Assembly: GCA_964373465.1 (NCBI GenBank)
Contig: CAYJVA010000001.1
Location: 1-28,916 of the forward strand
DNA from: an uncultured Gammaproteobacteria bacterium
GTDB taxonomy: Bacteria > Patescibacteriota > Microgenomatia > UBA1406 > HO2-37-13b
DNA: 28,916 nucleotides
Direction of reading: 5' to 3'
Each line of letters opens with the position of its first letter. Positions within the stretch are counted from its first letter, which is position 1. The translations under genes were made by a program, and so were the position numbers. The notes under the pieces are model-generated. The model was not told the DNA's origin. It worked only from the letters and a program-made list of their open reading frames with translations, and made no database searches. Below are positions 2,858-28,916 of this stretch, one piece after another.

Positions 2858-3535
2858 TTAATCTTTTTCTATAGTCAAATGTTTAATGTGTTCCAATTTT
2901 CTTTGATAATCAGAATGATTATATACAAATTCTTGATATTTTTTTGCATTCTCAAAAAATGAAAGAATAAAATCGGTATGACAGAAACCCCTTTGTTTAT
3001 TGATATATTCAAGTAATGAGGATGGTTCATATTTGTGCAAAGTATCAAGATTTTTCACGACATAAGAAGAATAAGGGTTTAAATGAATGTATCTTGAAAC
3101 ATGTAAAAGCTGTTCTTTAGTTTCAATTCTGACACATTTAAATTGACCTAAAAAGAGATGACCTTTCCTGTTGGTGAAGGTATTAAAATAACGCGTAAAG
3201 CTATTTTGAAATTGACTTAAAAATTTACTTATTCCATGTTCTTCTTTTTGTTTAAGCATCAAGTGAAAATGATTAGGCATTAAACAATAACAAATAATTT
3301 CAACCAAAGTTGTGTGTTGCTTCTCTATTTTTTCAATAAATTGATCTTGTTTTTCTTTTGACCAGTGCAGAAAATACGAAAGACGAGTAGGAATATTTTT
3401 AAATCTATAAAAATACAGAGTATCATAAGCACGTTTTATTGGTTTTTTATGGACAAAAATTGGTTTTCTATCAATGCTTTTGTTGAAGATATGATAGATT
3501 TGATCAGTTATAAGCGGCACCCTTCGCGAAGGCAT
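2858..3535 (-). mobile_element. REP-associated tyrosine transposase (RAYT; IS200/IS605-like Y1 HUH superfamily)
   Basis: YHIFNK near the N-terminus, HUH motif YCLMPNHFHL, GHLFLGQF, YIHLNP. Likely start is ATG 3535 (MPSRRVP). Flanked by inverted REP doublets. Confidence 0.9.
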
Positions 3536-3557
3536 ATGTATCAGGATATTACAAAAG

Positions 3558-3592
3558 TACCGAGGTGTCAAATATATTGCACCTCCAAGGTG
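3558..3592 (-). repeat. REP doublet, right end of the RAYT cassette (inverted relative to the left end)
   Basis: TACCGAGGTGT (3558-3568) is the exact reverse complement of 2808-2818; then an 11-nt spacer and CACCT-CCA-AGGTG (3580-3592). Confidence 0.85.
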
Positions 3593-3768: not shown

Positions 3769-4230
3769 ATGCAGACGAAGATATTATTGACTCAGGAAGG
3801 ATATGACAAGTTGAACCTCGAATTAAGACAATTAAAAGAAACAAAACGCAAAAAAGCAATTGATCGCCTTAAAAAAGCGCGAGAGATGGGAGACTTATCA
3901 GAAAATAGTGAGTATGTAGCGGCAAAAGAAGAACTTTCATTTATTGAATCTCGCATTTTAGAAATTGAAGATAAATTAAAAAAAGTTCAGGTGACCAATC
4001 ATGATTCGACCGCGCAGAAAGTAGAGATAGGATCTCGTGTTATAGTAGAGTCTGAGGGAAAAAAAGAAGCATATATGATTGTCGGCGATCTTGAGACTGA
4101 CATAGCCGCTGGGAAACTTGCATACACATCTCCTTTGGGAAAAGCGTTGATGAGGAGAAAAACAAATGAAGAGTTTGCTGTGAAAGCACCAGTAGGTCTT
4201 ATTACATACAAAATTATCTCTATTCAGTAA
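3769..4230 (+). CDS. greA: Transcription elongation factor GreA
   Basis: LLTQEGYDKL, AREMGDLSENSEY, VEIGSRV, SPLGKAL. True start is ATG 3769; the track's start at 3565 would run through the tRNA. Confidence 0.96.
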   Translation: MQTKILLTQEGYDKLNLELRQLKETKRKKAIDRLKKAREMGDLSENSEYVAAKEELSFIESRILEIEDKLKKVQVTNHDSTAQKVEIGSRVIVESEGKKEAYMIVGDLETDIAAGKLAYTSPLGKALMRRKTNEEFAVKAPVGLITYKIISIQ

Positions 4231-4285: not shown

Positions 4286-5878
4286 ATGATCTGGGTAGAT
4301 CGAGAAGTAAAAAAAATAAAAAAGAGACAGCTTTCGCTTGAGTGGGTTGATGATATGAAAACTCCTTCAGGAAGAATTCATGTGGGAGCATTACGTGGGA
4401 TTGTGATCCATGATATGATGCATAAAGCACTTCAAGAAGAAAAAATAAAGACACAATTTACCTATGTGTTTGAAGATCATGACCCTATGGATGCTATTCC
4501 TTCATATCTTGATTTTAGAAAATGGGAGCAGTACGCTGGTATGCAACTTTACACTATTCCTTCCCCCAAGTCTGGATATAGAAGTTATGCTCATTATTAT
4601 GCGTCTGAATTTCAGAAAGTATTTGAGTCAATCAACTGTCATCCTCATATCATGTGGGGGTCAGAATTGTATCTTTCAGGAAAAATGAACGGGGTGATAC
4701 AAGAGGTGCTTGACCATGCTCGTGAGATACGAGATATTTATAGGCGCATCGCAAAAGCAGACAAACCGTCGGATTGGCATCCTTTTCAAGCAGTATGTCA
4801 AAAATGTAAAAAAGTTGGGACGACACAAGTATATCGCTGGGATGGAAAAATGGTGTATTATCGTTGTATGCCACAGATGGTCGCATGGGCCAAAGGATGT
4901 GGTCATGAGGATAAAATATCACCTTTTAATGGAAATGGAAAAATGCCATGGAAAGTTGAATGGGGAGCAAAATGGAAAGTGATTGGTATTACTGTCGAAG
5001 GCGCAGGAAAAGATCATATGTCAGCAGGAGGTTCGTATGATATTGCATCTGCAATCTGTAAAGAAGTGTTGCATTATCCAGTTCCTTATTCGCTTCCCTA
5101 TGAGTGGTTTGTGGTGGGAGGGCGCAAAATGTCTTCTTCAAAAGGAATTGGAGTCTCAGCGCAAGAAGTATCTACCTTTCTACCTTCCAATATCTTGCGA
5201 TTTCTTATTGTACGTACACCTATTGGGACAGCGCTTGATTTTAATCCCTATCAGAAAAATACTATTTTTAATATCTTTGATGATTTTGATCGGTGTATGG
5301 ATGCATATTTTATCAGGCAAGAACAAGCGATTCCTGAAGGAAAAAAAGGTGAGGTACTTGCCGATTTCAGTCGCATCGTTGAGTTGTCTGCAGTGACCTC
5401 TCTTCCTAAAAAACGGTGTTTTTTACCACGATTTCGTACTGTGGTGAATCTTATAAAGGAAAAAAAAGATCTTATATCTTTTTTTACACGCAAAAAGGGA
5501 GAGATACTTACATTGGGTGAGAAGAAATTATTAAAAGAGCGCGTACGTTTTGGACGTATTTATTTACGCACATATGCAGAATCGTCAGATACAGCCTCCT
5601 CAATGAGTGTAGATCGATCGCCGTTTATCTATACCCAACAACAAAAAGATTTTTTACAGAAGGTTGCCACAGCATTATCTTCAAAAATGACTTCAAAAGA
5701 AAAAATAAACGCTCTGCTTATGAATGTATTAAAAGAAAACAATTTTGTTCCGTCAGATGTATTTCCTGCTTTATATCATCTACTTACGGGCACAACTTAT
5801 GGCCCTCGAGCGGAGGATTTAATATTGGAAACTGGTGTAACCGCAGTTCGTAAAAAATTAAAAAGCATTTTATCATAA
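4286..5878 (+). CDS. lysS: Lysine--tRNA ligase, class I
   Basis: KTPSGRIHVG (HIGH-like), KMPWKVEW, EGAGKDH, KMSSSKG (KMSKS-like), C-terminal GPR. Confidence 0.95.
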   Translation: MIWVDREVKKIKKRQLSLEWVDDMKTPSGRIHVGALRGIVIHDMMHKALQEEKIKTQFTYVFEDHDPMDAIPSYLDFRKWEQYAGMQLYTIPSPKSGYRSYAHYYASEFQKVFESINCHPHIMWGSELYLSGKMNGVIQEVLDHAREIRDIYRRIAKADKPSDWHPFQAVCQKCKKVGTTQVYRWDGKMVYYRCMPQMVAWAKGCGHEDKISPFNGNGKMPWKVEWGAKWKVIGITVEGAGKDHMSAGGSYDIASAICKEVLHYPVPYSLPYEWFVVGGRKMSSSKGIGVSAQEVSTFLPSNILRFLIVRTPIGTALDFNPYQKNTIFNIFDDFDRCMDAYFIRQEQAIPEGKKGEVLADFSRIVELSAVTSLPKKRCFLPRFRTVVNLIKEKKDLISFFTRKKGEILTLGEKKLLKERVRFGRIYLRTYAESSDTASSMSVDRSPFIYTQQQKDFLQKVATALSSKMTSKEKINALLMNVLKENNFVPSDVFPALYHLLTGTTYGPRAEDLILETGVTAVRKKLKSILS

Positions 5879-17970: not shown

Positions 17971-19071
17971 ATGCAGATACTATCTTATTCTGAATCAGAA
18001 GAGAAAAAAATCATCAATTCTGTCTGTGATATGCTTAGTCAAGGTGGTCTTGTTATTGTTCCTTCAGACACAGTATATGCTCTTGTTGCCGATGCAACAA
18101 ATCAGATAGCAATAAATACACTTTTGGATTTTAAGAAAAGACCTCCAGGAAAGGCAATCTCTGTATTTGTAGACAATCTATCAAAAGCACGTAGTATAGT
18201 TTCTATAAATAAAAAGCAGATGAGCACCATATCTCAATTGATCCCAGGTCCTTTTACGGTAGTCTTGCCTTATAAAAGTGGAGTTGCGCACGGTCTTCTA
18301 TCAGAGAAAAATACTCTTGGAATACGCATACCAGACTATCCTTTTATTAATAAACTTCTTGCTCAATATGGTGTGCCTCTTACTGCTACCTCAGCAAATG
18401 TATCGGGAAGATCTCCTCATTATTCAATACCATCTTTACTCAGTACTTTATCTGATAAAAAAAAGAAATATATACAAATGATTATTGATCGTGGAACACT
18501 TCCCTACAACAAACCTTCAACAGTGATTGATTTGACCGGAGACTCTGTGCGTGTATTACGGCAAGGGAATTATGAGAGAATGAAAGAAAAAGACTTTTAT
18601 TCGTCCAATAATCCAAACGACACGAAAAAGATCGGGTCGTTGCTTTTACGAAAATATCTTAAAATAGCTCAGAATAAACCATTGATATTTTTGATTGAAG
18701 GTGAATTGGGTGCAGGGAAAACAGTCCTTGTGAAAGGAATTGGTGAGGAGCTTGGAGTGAGTCGAATAGTATCACCGACTTTTGTCATCTATTATGAATA
18801 TCCCATCTCAAAAAATGAACTTAAGAAATTGTATCATTTTGATCTTTACGCGATTGAATATGAAGAGGAATTTCATTACTTAAAAATATACGATCTATTA
18901 AAGCCCAAAAATATAATCTGTATTGAATGGGGTGAAAAAAGCACGGCATTGCTTGATCAGTTTCAAAAAAAAGGATTGATAATTTATGTTCGTATCATAT
19001 ACAAAACAGCAACACAAAGGACTATCCAAAGTAGCATATTTAATCATGAGAAAAAATCAGCTCTATGTTAA
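17971..19071 (+). CDS. tsaC-tsaE: Fusion of threonylcarbamoyl-AMP synthase (TsaC/Sua5-YrdC domain) and t6A ATPase TsaE
   Basis: N-terminal PSDTVY, KKRPPGK, TATSANVSG, PSTVID, LRQG. C-terminal GELGAGKT, SPTF, YHFDLY, IEW. One continuous frame. Confidence 0.92.
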   Translation: MQILSYSESEEKKIINSVCDMLSQGGLVIVPSDTVYALVADATNQIAINTLLDFKKRPPGKAISVFVDNLSKARSIVSINKKQMSTISQLIPGPFTVVLPYKSGVAHGLLSEKNTLGIRIPDYPFINKLLAQYGVPLTATSANVSGRSPHYSIPSLLSTLSDKKKKYIQMIIDRGTLPYNKPSTVIDLTGDSVRVLRQGNYERMKEKDFYSSNNPNDTKKIGSLLLRKYLKIAQNKPLIFLIEGELGAGKTVLVKGIGEELGVSRIVSPTFVIYYEYPISKNELKKLYHFDLYAIEYEEEFHYLKIYDLLKPKNIICIEWGEKSTALLDQFQKKGLIIYVRIIYKTATQRTIQSSIFNHEKKSALC

Positions 19072-20129
19072 TTCTTGCGATTGATACCTCATGCGATGAG
19101 ACCTCAGTGGCTCTCACTGAGGGAAGAAAGATTATTGCCAATTCAATCTTCTCACAAGTTTTAATTCATTCGCCATGGGGTGGAGTAGTACCTCATCTGG
19201 CAAAACGCGCTCATGAAGAGAGGATTGATTGGGTGATTGAAAACGCGCTCAAGAAGTCTAAAGTCTCCCGCATGACGGGATCCCGCTCTGCGGGAAAAAG
19301 TCTAAAGTCTAAAGTCATAGAGTATATAGCAGTGACGTATGGGCCTGGGCTTGCGCCAGCGCTTGAAGTAGGAGTAAACAAGGCTAGGGAATTAGCAGAG
19401 AAATATGATAAAAGAATTATTCCTGTCAATCATATGGAAGGACATATTTATTCTTGTTTTGCGCAAAATAGTAAGGGTAACCCGCACAGGGATTTTGATT
19501 TTCCTTATATCGCACTTCTCATATCTGGTGGACACACACAGTTGGTTTTATTTACTTCACATCTTACCTATCAAATAATTGGGGAGACTGTTGATGACGC
19601 GGCAGGTGAGTCTCTTGACAAAGCGGCAAAAATGTTGGGACTGGGATATCCGGGAGGTGCGGTGATTGAACGGTTGGCTCAAAGGGGGGATCCGCGCTAC
19701 CATCAGTTTCCGCGACCACTCTCTCTATCAAAAGATTTTAATTTTTCATTTTCTGGTTTGAAGACTTCATTGTTTTATTATCTTAAAACAATAAGCGAAG
19801 ATGAAAAAAACACTCATCTTGCAGATCTTGCCAGCTCGTTTCAAGAAGCAGTATGTGATAGTCTTTTGGTCAAACTTAAAAATGCAATCCAACGCACTGG
19901 TGTTAATCGTATTTTGGTTGGAGGCGGTGTGGGCGCAAATATATATCTCAGGAAAAAAATAAGAAGTGTGGTTAAAAATATGCGAGGGCATGTATTTTTT
20001 CCACCATTTCCATATCTTTATGGTGATAATGCAGGGATGATTGGAATTGCAGGTTATTTTAAGGCGCAGCGGGGGGTTTTTGTTGAAGATAGAGAAAGTT
20101 TTGATCGAGTTCCTCGATTATCTTTTTGA
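19065..20129 (+). CDS. tsaD: tRNA N6-adenosine threonylcarbamoyltransferase TsaD, with an in-frame repeat insertion
   Basis: ILAIDTSCDET, GGVVP, YGPGL, HMEGH, SGGHT, DDAAGE, FSFSGLKT, DNAGMIG. Confidence 0.97.
   Translation: MLILAIDTSCDETSVALTEGRKIIANSIFSQVLIHSPWGGVVPHLAKRAHEERIDWVIENALKKSKVSRMTGSRSAGKSLKSKVIEYIAVTYGPGLAPALEVGVNKARELAEKYDKRIIPVNHMEGHIYSCFAQNSKGNPHRDFDFPYIALLISGGHTQLVLFTSHLTYQIIGETVDDAAGESLDKAAKMLGLGYPGGAVIERLAQRGDPRYHQFPRPLSLSKDFNFSFSGLKTSLFYYLKTISEDEKNTHLADLASSFQEAVCDSLLVKLKNAIQRTGVNRILVGGGVGANIYLRKKIRSVVKNMRGHVFFPPFPYLYGDNAGMIGIAGYFKAQRGVFVEDRESFDRVPRLSF
19254..19317 (+). repeat. Two tandem 15-nt palindromes embedded in an AAAGTCT 7-mer array inside tsaD
   Basis: AAGTCT AAAGTC, then TCCCG-CATGA-CGGGA and TCCCGC-TCT-GCGGGA (19266-19295, 10 codons, SRMTGSRSAG), then A AAAGTCT AAAGTCT AAAGTCA. 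Confidence 0.9.
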
Positions 20130-20140
20130 AGCTTACTTTG

Positions 20141-20235
20141 TATACCGCTTTCAGATGAAATTGCAAGAATATGTTTCATTTTACAGCGGTATAACCCTTC
20201 GTACGTCCCGCCATGGCGGGACTACGATGGGTATA
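20141..20235 (+). mobile_element. TATA-bounded two-hairpin miniature element, copy A (95 nt)
   Basis: TATACCGCT...AGCGGTATA hairpin followed by TATAACCC-TTCGTAC-GTCCCGCCATGGCGGGAC-TACGATGGGTATA; homologous to copies B and C. Confidence 0.8.
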
Positions 20236-20289
20236 AAATACTCTTGCAAAAGAATATATAATCGTAATAATCGTATATTCTCATAGAAA

Positions 20290-20514
20290 ATGAATAGTTT
20301 ACCTAAGAAAATCGCAATCATTGATGATGATAGGATTACACAGAAGCTATATCATGATATTTTGATCAAAGAGGGCTATATGGTGGTTCAAGCTTTTAAT
20401 CGTCAAGAGGGTCTCAACCTGATCAAATTTTCCCATACGGATTTAATAGTGTGGGGTATGAGTTCAGTTAATTTGAAGTTTTTAATGCTTCCTCTTTTAA
20501 TGCTTCCTCTATGA
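20290..20514 (+). pseudogene. Truncated response-regulator receiver (REC) domain
   Basis: KIAIIDDD...EGYMVVQAFNRQEGL...DLIV; similarity stops just before the expected phospho-acceptor Asp, and the tail is antisense to the dsbA-like gene. Confidence 0.7.
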
Positions 20515-21118
20515 TTTTTTTGAATGTCTCAAAGTTTTGAGGATTATCAAGTTTCTGGCCATTGAGGAAAAAAAAAGGAGTTGAGTTGACGCCAGCCTTT
20601 TGACCGTTTGATAGATCAGTATCAATTTTTTCTTTGATTGTTTTTGATTCCATATCTTTTTTGAATTGTTCTTCATCCAATTTTAATTCTTTCGCATAAG
20701 AAAGAAATAATTCATCGGCGTTTGATTTATTAGACCAATTATCTTGATTTTTGAAAAGAAGATCATGCATTTCCCAGAATTTTCCTTGATTTCCTGCAGA
20801 TTCTGCAGAATACGCGGCTTTTTGAGCGTTTTGATGTTGAGGAAGGGGAAAATGTCGATAGACAAATGCGATTTTATCTTTGAACTCGTCTGCAATTTGT
20901 TTCGCTATGGGAGAGTATGCTTTGCATGCAGGACATTGAAAATCACTGTATTCAATCAATTGAATTTTTGACTCTTTATTTCCTTACATCCTGTCATTTT
21001 TAGTGAGGGTAAAATCAATAGGTTTTGTTTCCAGTGGCTTTGACGTCAACTTCCACACTCCAAAAAGCCCTCCTACTAATATAATTGTTAGTGCGAGATA
21101 ATACCCTATTTTTTTCAT
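20468..21118 (-). pseudogene. DsbA-family thioredoxin with N-terminal membrane anchor, interrupted by an in-frame TAA at codon 45
   Basis: ATG 21118 gives MKKIGYYLALTIILVGGLFGVWKL...KNDRM*GNKESKIQLIEYSDFQCPAC. TAA at 20986-20984. CPAC, YRHFPL and GVNSTP motifs are intact. Confidence 0.85.
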
Positions 21119-21121
21119 ATT

Positions 21122-21315
21122 TTATTTATTCTCTTTCTCAAAAATAAATAATGTACAAATAAAACCATTATCGTTTAAATTTTCTTTACGGATGAGCGCA
21201 AAATGATTGTTTTTGAATAAGTCAAGATAATATGCTTTTTCTCTATTATAATCTACCACTTTTCCAATTTGAGGTATATCGCTGTAATGTAATATTTCTT
21301 TGAACTTTTTGTCGT
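21122..21315 (-). pseudogene. 3' remnant (about 64 codons) of an unidentified gene, fused in frame behind miniature element B
   Basis: Open frame NDKKFKEILH...FEKENK* whose stop lies 3 nt before the dsbA-like ATG; begins exactly at the element end. Confidence 0.45.
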
Positions 21316-21440
21316 TATACCCATCGTAGTCCCGCCATGGCGGGACGTACGGAGGGTTATGCCGCTGATCATCGCATACGAGATCCCGCTTTGCGGGAAA
21401 GATGAGACGATTTGTTGCAATCTCATCTGAAAGCGGTATA
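21316..21440 (-). mobile_element. TATA-bounded two-hairpin miniature element, copy B (125 nt), inverted relative to A and C
   Basis: Reverse complement aligns to copy A end to end, plus a 30-nt extra (21369-21398) containing TCCCGC-TTT-GCGGGA. Confidence 0.8.
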
Positions 21441-21730
21441 TCCAGTCGGTGAGTCTTTACATCAACTATATAATAAAATCCATCTTTATCGGTAAAAGCT
21501 AAATCAGCCATTGCTCGTCGAGCAAAAGTAGAGGAATATTCACTGGCAAGATTACCGAGTATTGTTTTGAAATTTTCGACTATTATATTTTCAATAGCAT
21601 CGCCAACAGCGCGAGGACTTTCAATTGTTCTATCAGATAAGAAATCTTCTTGTTTATTGAGAAGTGACTGAATTTTTCTTTCAATCATTTCTCTGTTTGT
21701 ATTTCCGTAGAAAATTGAACTCTTTTTCAT
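21440..21730 (-). pseudogene. N-terminal 97 codons of a putative type II PD-(D/E)xK restriction endonuclease, cut off by element B
   Basis: SPRAVGDAIE...RRAMADLAF...IVDVKTHRLD (D...DxK-like core); 4-bp overlap with the upstream methyltransferase; sequence switches to element B at codon 98. Confidence 0.7.
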
Positions 21731-22740
21731 ATAAGTTGGTTGTTAAATAAGTTTGCTGTTAATTCAATTTTATTTTTCTTGTTATTTCCGTTTGACTGTC
21801 CATTCAAAGTATTTCTTTCCCAAAAAACACCGTCTGAGTATCCTTGAATTGTATTATCGTATTGTGCGTTTTCTAATCGTTTCTCTGCCAAACAACAGTA
21901 TAGTTTGTCAATTTCTATCCCCACATATCTCCGTCCTAATTTTCGTGCGACAACGGAAGTAGTGCCTGATCCCAAAAATGGATCAAAAACTACATCATTT
22001 GGTTTTGAACTTGCTAAAATTATTTTTGAAACGAGTTTTTCCGGTTTTTGAGTCGGGTGGTCAGTATTTTCCGACATAGACCAAAATGGAATTGTAATAT
22101 CCGTCCAAATGTTAGATGGGTGAGTAATCCTATATTTTTCTCCTTCGTTGTCTTCCCAATCTTTTGGTTTTCCTTCTTCGTCTTTGTAAGGTGCTATCAC
22201 CTTACGTTTTATTTTAACTGCATCAACATCAAAATGATAATCGTCCGATAAAGTGCAGAACCATATATCCTCGGAACAATTTTTCCAGTTTGATTTTGCG
22301 CCGCGTCCCTTTTCTCGTTCAAAAGTAATGCGATTTTTAATTTGAAAATACTTTTTTGTAACATTAAAGATAGCTCCTGATGATTTCCAGTCGCCACAAA
22401 TATAAAATGAGGCATTTGGTTTTAATAGGCGGATTATTTTTTGAACCCAGGAATTTAACCATTCTTCATATTTTTTTGACTCCATTGCCTTAAATGAAGT
22501 AAGATTAAACGTCTTGCTTAAATTGTAAGGTGGGTCAACAAAAACAAGATCAACAAATTTATCAGGTAAATACTCTAATGCTTCAAAAATATCCTGATGT
22601 AATGTTTTATTTTCAATTTTATCAAAAGATACGGGTTCTTTCAGTTTAATCAAATGTTTTTGCAGTCGAGAGATATCCTCATCATTCAAATTTATAGTGC
22701 GATTTCGTGGAGATCTTTTTTGGTTTATTTCTTTTTTCAT
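21727..22740 (-). CDS. Site-specific DNA methyltransferase, N4/N6 beta class
   Basis: DPPY precedes HPTQKP and DPFLGSGTT (motif order IV then I). Confidence 0.93.
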   Translation of the reverse strand: MKKEINQKRSPRNRTINLNDEDISRLQKHLIKLKEPVSFDKIENKTLHQDIFEALEYLPDKFVDLVFVDPPYNLSKTFNLTSFKAMESKKYEEWLNSWVQKIIRLLKPNASFYICGDWKSSGAIFNVTKKYFQIKNRITFEREKGRGAKSNWKNCSEDIWFCTLSDDYHFDVDAVKIKRKVIAPYKDEEGKPKDWEDNEGEKYRITHPSNIWTDITIPFWSMSENTDHPTQKPEKLVSKIILASSKPNDVVFDPFLGSGTTSVVARKLGRRYVGIEIDKLYCCLAEKRLENAQYDNTIQGYSDGVFWERNTLNGQSNGNNKKNKIELTANLFNNQLI

Positions 22741-22784
22741 ATGATTTCAAAATTATAACTGATATTTTTATAGTTATCCTTTTG

Positions 22785-22856
22785 TGCCAACGAGAGGACT
22801 CGAACCTCTGACCGACCGCTTATGAAACGGTTGCTCTACCCCTGAGCTACGCTGGC
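22785..22856 (-). tRNA. tRNA with CAT anticodon, non-initiator (elongator Met or Ile2)
   Basis: Acceptor GCCAGCG/CGTTGGC, D arm GCTC/GAGC, anticodon arm ACCGT-TTCATAA-GCGGT, T arm AGAGG-TTCGAGT-CCTCT. 1:72 is paired and there is no GGG/CCC anticodon stem. Confidence 0.92.
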
Positions 22857-22896
22857 AATGATAATCTTCCGAAGGATAACTGCCACCTATTTTTAT

Positions 22897-23040
22897 TATA
22901 CCCCTTTCAGATGAAATCCGATTTAATCGGATTGAAATTGCAAAAAGATAAATCATCTTACAGCGGTATAACCTCTCATACGTTGAAATTGCTTTTACCT
23001 CCGAATCGGAGGTTTTGCAATTTCAACTACGATAAGTATA
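22897..23040 (+). mobile_element. TATA-bounded two-hairpin miniature element, copy C (144 nt), with nested hairpins
   Basis: TATACCCCTTTCAGATGAAA...AGCGGTATA-ACC...CTACGATAAGTATA. Inserts: TCCGAT-TTA-ATCGGA (22917-22931) and GTTGAAATTGC...GCAATTTCAAC (22982-23027). Confidence 0.8.
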
Positions 23041-23175: not shown

Positions 23176-23601
23176 ATGGCGATAATAAGACTTGATCCAT
23201 TCAGTCCATTCAGATCATTTTTCAGACCAGTATCATGGGACAATGAACAAGACTGGCCTGAAGTAAGCATGACTGAAGGTTTGGATGTCTATGAAGAAGG
23301 TGATTCTATAGTTGCCAAAGCCGCAGTGCCAGGTATTCCCGCTGATAAGGTTGAGGTGACTTATGAAGATGGAGTGCTTCGTATTAAGGCGCGATATGAA
23401 GAATCAGAAGAAGAAAAGAAAAAGAAAAAAGTCGTGTACCGACGTGAGAAAGTCTCCTCATTTAATTACACGACAGTACTTCCAAGAGCAATTGATGAAA
23501 AAAGCATTGAGGCGGAAGTATCAGAAGGTGTTGTGACTATAAGGGCTCATATCGCAGAACAAGCAAAGCCAAAGAAGATAGAAGTAAAATCTCGAAAGTA
23601 A
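23176..23601 (+). CDS. Hsp20/alpha-crystallin small heat-shock protein
   Basis: LDVYEE...AAVPG...GVLRI...LPRAIDEKSIEAEVSEGVVTI...KPKKIEV. Confidence 0.93.
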   Translation: MAIIRLDPFSPFRSFFRPVSWDNEQDWPEVSMTEGLDVYEEGDSIVAKAAVPGIPADKVEVTYEDGVLRIKARYEESEEEKKKKKVVYRREKVSSFNYTTVLPRAIDEKSIEAEVSEGVVTIRAHIAEQAKPKKIEVKSRK

Positions 23602-28857: not shown

Positions 28858-28861
28858 AATG

Positions 28862-28916
28862 TGTCATGCCCGCCTGCCGTCGGGCAGGCTGAATTTATCC
28901 ACGCCTTTGGCGGGAT
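28862..28916. repeat. REP-like cluster of nested GC-rich palindromes, cut by the window edge
   Basis: TGTCATG...CTGAATTT interrupted by GCCTGCC-GTCG-GGCAGGC (28872-28889), then ATCC(A)CGCC-TTT-GGCGGGAT (28897-28916). Confidence 0.7.

Follow-up and report, generated by a model that had tools for sequence, protein, structure and literature searches.

The locus considered here raises the question of what three short, TATA-bounded sequences, each predicted to fold into two hairpins, represent in the genome of an uncultured bacterium of the Patescibacteriota, and how they came to be placed there. They lie in a window of 28,916 nucleotides (contig CAYJVA010000001.1), which is contig 1 of an assembly (GCA_964373465.1, hereafter G000) of 904 kb in 120 contigs with 36% GC. 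Here we describe the family to which these sequences (copies A, B and C; Table 1) belong, and propose that it is very probably a non-autonomous miniature inverted-repeat transposable element (MITE) of the IS630/Tc1-mariner type, mobilised in trans by a DDE transposase of the IS630 family. An earlier note, made from the letters alone, had placed the three copies on their strands and given them the layout TATA-hairpin 1-TATA-hairpin 2-TATA; both the positions and the layout are as it described. All three start with TATACC, end with GTATA and carry a central (T/C)ATA that separates the hairpins, this being CATA in B. The covariation that the note saw in the inner stem of hairpin 1 is also present (AGATGAAA/TTTCATTT in A versus AGATGAGA/TCTCATCT in B), and A and B share the GC palindrome CCCGCCATGGCGGG. 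A repeat finder links A with B and A with C, and single-strand folds compared with dinucleotide shuffles gave z = -7.5 (A), -5.5 (B) and -6.9 (C), the DNA fold of A reaching -25.3 kcal/mol. The three sequences are members of one repeat family.

This family extends well beyond the window. BLAST searches and motif scans of the 0.9-Mb assembly returned 64 left ends and 57 right ends, and pairing of ends genome-wide gave about 43 complete copies (46-225 nt) and about 10 cut by contig ends, far beyond chance; the further copies that the first description had proposed to look for thus exist in quantity. Length classes of 46, 56, 91, 95, 98, 102, 116, 125, 126, 144-151 and 225 nt were distinguished, with mean within-class identities of 96% for the 91-nt class (n = 9) and 98% for the 126-nt class (n = 3). 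Fourteen contig ends of G000 fall in a single repeat cluster that is mostly this MITE, which contributes to the fragmentation of the assembly; that of the congener Patescibacteria SMAG_U8079 (hereafter G001) is explained by the element as well, and annotators gain a family to mask. In both genomes the coding share is 89-90%, and the copies are intergenic in 35 of 43 cases in G000 and in all 27 in G001, frequently at 0-10 nt from a start or stop codon; most of the eight remaining G000 copies sit in doubtful open reading frames (ORFs). The Rickettsia palindromic elements are distinguished by lying in frame within functional genes; here 62 of 70 copies are intergenic, and the host gene of copy B is truncated.

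Comparison with G001 revealed how the copies are inserted. We fetched all 76 contigs of that genome and mapped the flanks of every copy reciprocally between the two congeners, which yielded nine clean pairs of filled and empty sites, four filled in G000 and five in G001. Filled alleles read flank-TA-TACC...GGTA-TA-flank and empty alleles flank-TA-flank, so that an insertion adds the TACC...GGTA element together with one extra TA; the targeting of TA suggested from the window alone is thereby borne out at empty sites in a related genome. Duplication of a 2-bp TA target in this way is characteristic of IS630/Tc1-mariner transposition (PMC2170065, PMC2229807). The flanks show a weak R-TA-Y target preference and vary beyond the TA. 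Among G000 copies with both flanks placeable, none had a same-orientation copy at the matching G001 site, indicating either that the comparable insertions post-date the split of the two genomes or that turnover is fast. One candidate for a shared insertion (G000:C13:11364 and G001:C12:6414) was the only one and was discarded on finding opposite orientations within one spacer; the two are independent insertions, so that no in-place exchange of hairpin cargo between the two genomes was shown. Contigs from public sequencing runs that cover the window displayed depth spikes and contig breaks at A, B and C and supplied no clean empty allele. The element is recently active and polymorphic in position, and a TA-inserting element of this kind occupies about 0.5% of the DNA in an otherwise streamlined genome of less than 1 Mb.

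The family was found in five of 223 genomes of the order (G000, G001, G053, G096 and G211), representing four of 81 genera and two families. G001 carries about 27 copies, mostly of a 102-nt form, and Ca. Roizmanbacteria RIFCSPLOWO2_01_FULL_41_22 (G053, also handled as G041) at least 24. This patchy occurrence across two families suggests horizontal spread among bacteria of the Candidate Phyla Radiation (CPR). SecA of G000 shares 86% identity with that of G001 but only 65% with that of the Roizmanbacteria genome, whose copies of the element nevertheless have the same 26-nt left end as those in G000 and match them at about 80-90% identity overall; either horizontal spread or strong constraint on the element would fit these sequence comparisons.

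The architecture of the element is best seen in the 102-nt form, which occurs in all five carriers and is probably basal. Both ends bear TATACC at positions 1-6 and TTGCAA at positions 21-26, and the left end shares TATACC and TGAAATTGCAA with the reverse complement of the right end, matching it at 19 of 27 positions overall. Hairpin 1 consists of the left terminal repeat and an inner inverted copy of it, and hairpin 2 of an inner copy and the right terminal repeat; with each terminal repeat folded on an inner copy, every element presents four end-like arms. In the form common to the five carriers, the inner half of the right terminal repeat folds on itself to make the TGAAATTGC-TTT-GCAATTTCA tip in which hairpin 2 closes. 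This modifies the initial description of a slot in hairpin 2, filled by a GC palindrome in A and B and by a 46-nt nested hairpin in C. The palindromes of A (20207-20220) and B are indeed there and have replaced the original tip, the right terminal repeat of A being shortened to its outer 15 nt. The slot itself is not neutral, and C retains the original tip with an additional 21-nt hairpin nested in its loop (22993-23013). Solo hairpins are rare and likewise TATA-bounded, comprising a hairpin 2 at G000:C52:5722-5772 and at least one hairpin 1 in Roizmanbacteria locus L119. The element may possibly be a dimer of two minimal fold-back transposons, each movable alone.

Conservation of the fold is evident from 21 distinct 102-nt sequences, in which 92% of predicted pairs are Watson-Crick or G-T and eight pairs carry changes in both partners; when the partner was displaced by one to three columns as a control, 32-42% were paired and zero to one pairs showed double-sided changes. 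Such compensatory change, very stable folds and the closeness of many copies to gene starts and stops might be taken to mean that these are primarily functional structured RNAs or regulatory hairpins, such as terminators or mRNA-stability elements, whose spread is secondary; the ERIC sequence acts as an mRNA-stability element in Yersinia. We consider this very unlikely. Copies between co-directional genes show no orientation bias (13 in the same and 9 in the opposite direction), an Rfam scan returned a tRNA match only and nothing for the element, promoter and terminator scans produced no signal exceeding shuffles, and the two congeners hold no comparable insertion site in common. Compensatory change would also be expected if the arms were transposase-binding ends, or if palindromes were homogenised in replication or repair, and the covariation could reflect any of the three, selection on the fold included. 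Any role of the hairpins would be putative.

The search for a mobilising enzyme led to IS630-family insertion sequences (ISs) in relatives. Elements of this family insert at TA with duplication, and their transposase binds the terminal repeats through two helix-turn-helix motifs, as in ISY100 (PMC2170065). One MITE carrier, G211, encodes an intact 347-residue transposase of this family (NF033545, 208 bits), and the left end of its IS, TATACCCCTCTTCAATGAATTTGCAAT, matches the left end of the MITE at 20 of 27 positions. Homologous ISs were found in 18 of the 223 genomes; metagenomes yielded at least 479 stretches with homologues, and 80 of these were retained. Every member examined has TATACC(C), some 14 nt and then TTGCAA(C), and agrees with the MITE ends at 18-22 of 27 positions, the best at 22. 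The outer TATACC and inner (A)ATTGCAA boxes are common to MITE and IS ends, with a spacing of 12-14 nt in both. Traces of such ISs also occur in the two congeners. The last 141 nt of G001 contig 12 comprise a transposase C-terminus and a right end, TTGCAATTTGGGTGGATAATGGTATA, followed by TA, and are 100% identical to the end of a 1.1-kb IS that is complete in a contig of metagenome origin (locus L250); the ends of this IS share with those of the MITE a 6-nt outer and an 8-nt inner box at the same 12-nt spacing. In contig 28 of G000 (about 3825-3915), the left end and 5' leader of an IS of the L250 type survive as a remnant with 86% identity, fused to a MITE-type terminus; the whole looks like an internally deleted IS derivative. 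In this 90-nt chimera the IS leader, up to its ATGAAAG start, is joined at TGAAAG microhomology to a CGGTATA terminus. As far as sequence can tell, the connection with IS630 is well supported by end layout and co-occurrence, and the mobilising enzyme would be a transposase of this family. The IS630 mobilisation suggested from the window alone therefore stands as regards the end boxes, matched in ISs of relatives and in the G000 remnant; a transposase gene with identical ends was not found.

Two other candidate sources of transposase were rejected. A multi-copy IS of G001 had been considered as parent on the grounds that its transposase C-terminus abuts a MITE left end (G001:C64); 19 contig ends show that it has its own TGTTCAGGACC... 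ends and was inserted into a MITE copy. This IS (e.g. G001:C64:1-135) has ends TGTTCAGGACCTATACATACGATACAG and TGTCTAGGACCCGATAGATCCGATACAG, beginning TGT..., and an integrase-type (rve-like) C-terminus, and it interrupts the assembly in some 30 places, at contig ends of two kinds (19 and 13). A 380-residue ORF beside an orphan left end in contig 56 of G000 proved to encode an AAA/DUF4143 ATPase.

Several observations weigh against the proposed mobilisation by an IS630-family enzyme. The G000 assembly lacks an IS630-type transposase gene, as does the Roizmanbacteria genome with its 24 or more copies; searches of G000, G001 and G053 with DDE_3 (PF13358) and IS630 (NF033545) profiles returned nothing above cut-off. 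Since the metagenome-assembled genomes G000 and G001 contain no contigs below about 2.3-2.6 kb, a multi-copy IS of 1.1 kb would have been lost from them, and its absence says little in either direction. Among representative genomes of 185,579 species and among the metagenome loci, no IS had the same ends as the MITE, the nearest reaching 81%, and even in G211 the ends of the resident IS and the resident MITE differ. The inner arms and the outer ends are conserved to the same degree, which a transposon dependent on its terminal repeats only would not need. Finally, amplification has clearly taken place in the abundant 91-, 95- and 125-nt classes although their right end is devoid of the inner TTGCAA box; as these classes are also polymorphic relative to G001, the outer 15 nt seem to suffice at this end.

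The missing cognate transposase and the limited identity (70-81%) of the nearest IS630-type ends leave some room for a MITE of another superfamily that duplicates TA or TNA, such as the IS5/IS427 group or PIF-Harbinger-like elements, with a likeness to IS630 that arose by chance. We regard this as most improbable: the duplication is exactly 2 bp, and TA, in all nine cases; two boxes of 6 and 6-8 nt recur at identical spacing in an IS630-family clade of the same order; and a remnant of an IS630-type IS lies within the G000 genome itself.

We therefore favour a scheme in which a DDE transposase of the IS630 family, acting in trans, would recognise the terminal repeats of about 27 bp, with their TATACC tip and the (A)ATTGCAA box at positions 19-26, excise the element and reinsert it at a TA dinucleotide that is duplicated in the process. 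Insertion at TA with duplication would explain why every copy is bounded by TATA. Small GC-rich palindromes would insert into, or replace, hairpin tips and arms and so create subfamilies, and variants bearing them would be amplified by further transposition.

The interiors of the copies are consistent with this last proposal, and the idea, raised from the window alone, that the element collects smaller palindromes is upheld by at least 10 distinct nested insertions or replacements at seven to eight internal positions. The insertions fall at positions 15, 42/43, 46/47, 55, 60/61, 75 and 79 of the 102-nt consensus, and two stem tips have been replaced. Copy C contains two of them, that in the hairpin 2 loop and the insert with a duplicated TGAAAT at its borders, which is found, as previously reported, at 22912-22932. 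Insert lengths cluster at about 11-13, 20-21, 27-30 and 51-56 nt, lengths that amount to a single small hairpin unit, two or four of them. The inserts are bordered by direct repeats of inconsistent length, 6-7 nt at position 15, 9 nt for a Roizmanbacteria insert, 3 nt at position 75 and 0-2 nt elsewhere. The palindrome types are specific to genomes: CCCGCC(A/T)(A/T)GGCGGG and relatives in G000, CCTGTCTGCCGACAGGCAGG in G001 and CCAAGTCTGACTTGG in the Roizmanbacteria genome. GC-rich hairpins with 5-bp stems are 41 times denser within G000 copies than outside. The two commonest palindromes account for 41 genomic copies, 35 of them inside MITEs, so that most of this excess is attributable to the amplification of two acquisitions along with the MITE. 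The remaining types are mostly outside MITEs, in ORFs and spacers alike.

Further details of the palindromes were noted. Units of 13-17 nt, GC-rich and inserted with direct repeats of 6-9 nt, are seen in two MITE copies (that at window 22912-22932 and one at about 4504-4523 of locus L113); the same types occur 258 times outside MITEs in G000, 148 of them in long ORFs; and the palindrome GTCCCGCCATGGCGGGAC is also found by itself in G005, G029 and G039, which represent three further genera of the order. Extensive remodelling of the interior is displayed by copies at G000:C94:3665-3818, C110:2924-3030, the left end of C88 and C2:17134-17258, in which arrays of at least four small palindromes (>50 nt) occupy the 5' arm of hairpin 2 and hairpin 1 is reduced to TATACCGCT-TTC-AGCGGTATA.

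One tentative interpretation, which we hold possible and somewhat doubtful, is that the MITE serves as a landing pad recording a second, smaller class of mobile or self-generating GC-rich palindromes; these would be hairpin units of 13-17 nt, with inserts of about 14-15, 20-21, 28-30 and 55-56 nt and direct repeats of 6-9 nt in three cases. If that were true, the consensus would supply the exact state before each insertion, and thus the cleanest evidence of the entry of mini-palindromes into reduced CPR genomes.

Nested GC palindromes of REP-like size, in an element built of hairpins with conserved inner arms, also invite comparison with REP/BIME-like units, spread by a Y1 transposase (RAYT or IS200-like) acting on single-stranded hairpins. 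A Y1_Tnp gene is indeed present in the window (2858-3571, minus strand; PF01797, E = 4e-9), between inverted palindromes CACCTCGGAGGTG. Y1 transposases, however, make no target duplication, whereas nine sites here show that of TA; the palindromes flanking the RAYT gene differ from the ends of the element, which match those of the IS630 family; and both orientations are used equally. Such an origin of the element is in our judgement extremely improbable, and the RAYT could instead be responsible for the small nested palindromes and not for the MITE. A palindrome-associated element derived from IS200/IS605 was rejected in view of the terminal repeats, the TA duplication and flanks that vary beyond it.

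Placed among known elements, the IS630-type MITE proposed here shares with the ERIC sequence, to which it had been likened at the outset, the layout of its ends and not their identity. Using a real ERIC copy from the ybhJ-ybhI spacer of E. coli O157, we found that the right ends of ERIC and MITE agree at 19 of 26 positions (shuffle p = 5.6e-4, with TATAC fixed and the best of four end pairings taken), and that TATAC (positions 1-5) and TTGCA (positions 21-25) recur in all four ends and in the CPR IS630 ends. Local alignment of the interiors scored below the shuffle mean. The suggested ERIC link thus applies to the ends and not to the dissimilar interiors: from these alignments, the element appears ERIC-like in its ends and insertion mode, and is not a member of the ERIC family. 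RUP, ERIC and Correia are TA-flanked bacterial MITEs (PMC2229807), and the ERIC-type MITEPlu5 has been linked to IS630 ends of the 'CCC' type with TA duplication (PMC6267812). The shared layout ties enterobacterial ERIC-type MITEs and the CPR-associated IS630 clade to one kind of terminal repeat. ERIC, MITEEc1 and MITEPlu5 are, like the CPR element, TA-flanked, intergenic and capable of a strong hairpin, but ERIC is a single long imperfect palindrome of 127 bp with a conserved central core, in contrast to two tandem hairpins in a different host phylum. RUP of Streptococcus pneumoniae, with IS630-Spn1, is likewise an intergenic, TA-inserting MITE; its copies number about 100, are about 100 nt long and have terminal repeats resembling those of an IS630-family IS (PMC2229807). 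It has a resident cognate IS with closely similar ends, whereas the CPR element has its nearest IS ends at the identities given above and lacks a transposase in three of five carrier assemblies; nor is RUP described as two fold-back hairpins with nested palindromes. The Correia element, or NEMIS, of Neisseria is similarly an orphan, TA-duplicating MITE with terminal repeats of about 25 bp, subfamilies defined by internal segments and a host without cognate transposase (PMC2229807), but its end sequence is unrelated and it carries an IHF site and promoter elements, neither shown for the CPR element.

The statement in the earlier note that no description of such an element was known from CPR genomes agrees with our literature search, which found no paper on MITEs in Patescibacteria. 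The family is well supported, apparently undescribed and of a well-known kind, an everyday form of selfish DNA. It changes nothing in what is known of how such elements work, and is unusual only in that its four-arm design is modular and that it keeps a record of nested mini-palindromes.

Table 1. Copies of the element and neighbouring genes in the window (window coordinates)
Feature	Coordinates	Strand	Remarks
Copy A, 95-nt form	20141..20235	+	TA duplications 20141-20142 and 20234-20235; element proper 20143-20233
Hairpin 1 of A	20141..20193	+	Left terminal repeat TATACCGCTTTCAGATGAAATTGCAA folded back onto inner inverted copy
Hairpin 2 of A	20190..20235	+	Inner arm pairs with right terminal repeat
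Copy B, 125-nt form	21316..21440	-	30-nt double-hairpin insertion 21369-21398; GC palindrome 21331-21344
Copy C, 144-nt form	22897..23040	+	102-nt basic body with two nested 21-nt hairpin insertions
tsaD	19065..20129	+	PF00814, E = 7e-77; upstream of copy A
HincII-like restriction endonuclease	21441..21730	-	N-terminal 97 codons; 221-residue family; at most 90% identity to homologues
N6/N4 DNA methyltransferase	21727..22740	-	PF01555, E = 1.3e-43; partner of truncated endonuclease
tRNA-Met (CAT)	22784..22856	-	40 nt from copy C
hsp20	23176..23601	+	PF00011; 135 nt downstream of copy C

The settings of the three window copies differ (Table 1). Copy A begins 11 nt after the tsaD stop codon, and copy C is located between the tRNA-Met gene and hsp20. 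Copy B lies inside an open frame of 202 codons, of which only the first 97 are a real gene, that of a restriction endonuclease of a family in which some homologues have the HincII endonuclease domain (PF09226) recorded. Homology to this family ends exactly at the copy B boundary (its left end, 21440), and the remaining 124 endonuclease codons were not found anywhere in the G000 genome; the 64 codons beyond the far side of B had no match in G001. The adjacent methyltransferase gene is intact. Copy B thus marks a truncation of the endonuclease, probably through a MITE-associated deletion, that left an orphan methylase, and offers a concrete case of gene decay associated with a MITE, in which the restriction enzyme is lost and the methylase survives.

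Other features of this region were recorded. A fragment of a response-regulator receiver domain (20290-20514, 74 codons) covers the first 48 of 111 profile positions of PF00072. This fragment and the broken endonuclease point to a decaying island at 20240-21730, a region without counterpart in G001. A DsbA-like (thioredoxin) gene on the minus strand (20468-21118) has an in-frame TAA (20984-20986) after its signal-peptide region. Contigs from the best-matching public runs (X1 and X4) read T at 20986, which turns the stop into AAA (Lys), and differ at four further positions within 20959-20963; the in-frame TAA probably reflects variation in the assembly or the strain and not a real pseudogene. 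Three further repeat families occupy contig ends of G000, one at C30, C49, C63 and C104, another at C32, C59 and C82, and a third shared by the right end of the window (28860-28916) and C67. One begins GCGCAAGTTGAGATACATAGG, one contains CACTGTCAAACCAAAATGAAAATGTCATACCCTCCGAATCGGAGGG, and that at the right end of the window contains GTCATGCCCGCCTGCCGTCGGGCAGGC; these are probably the ends of other ISs or palindromic elements.

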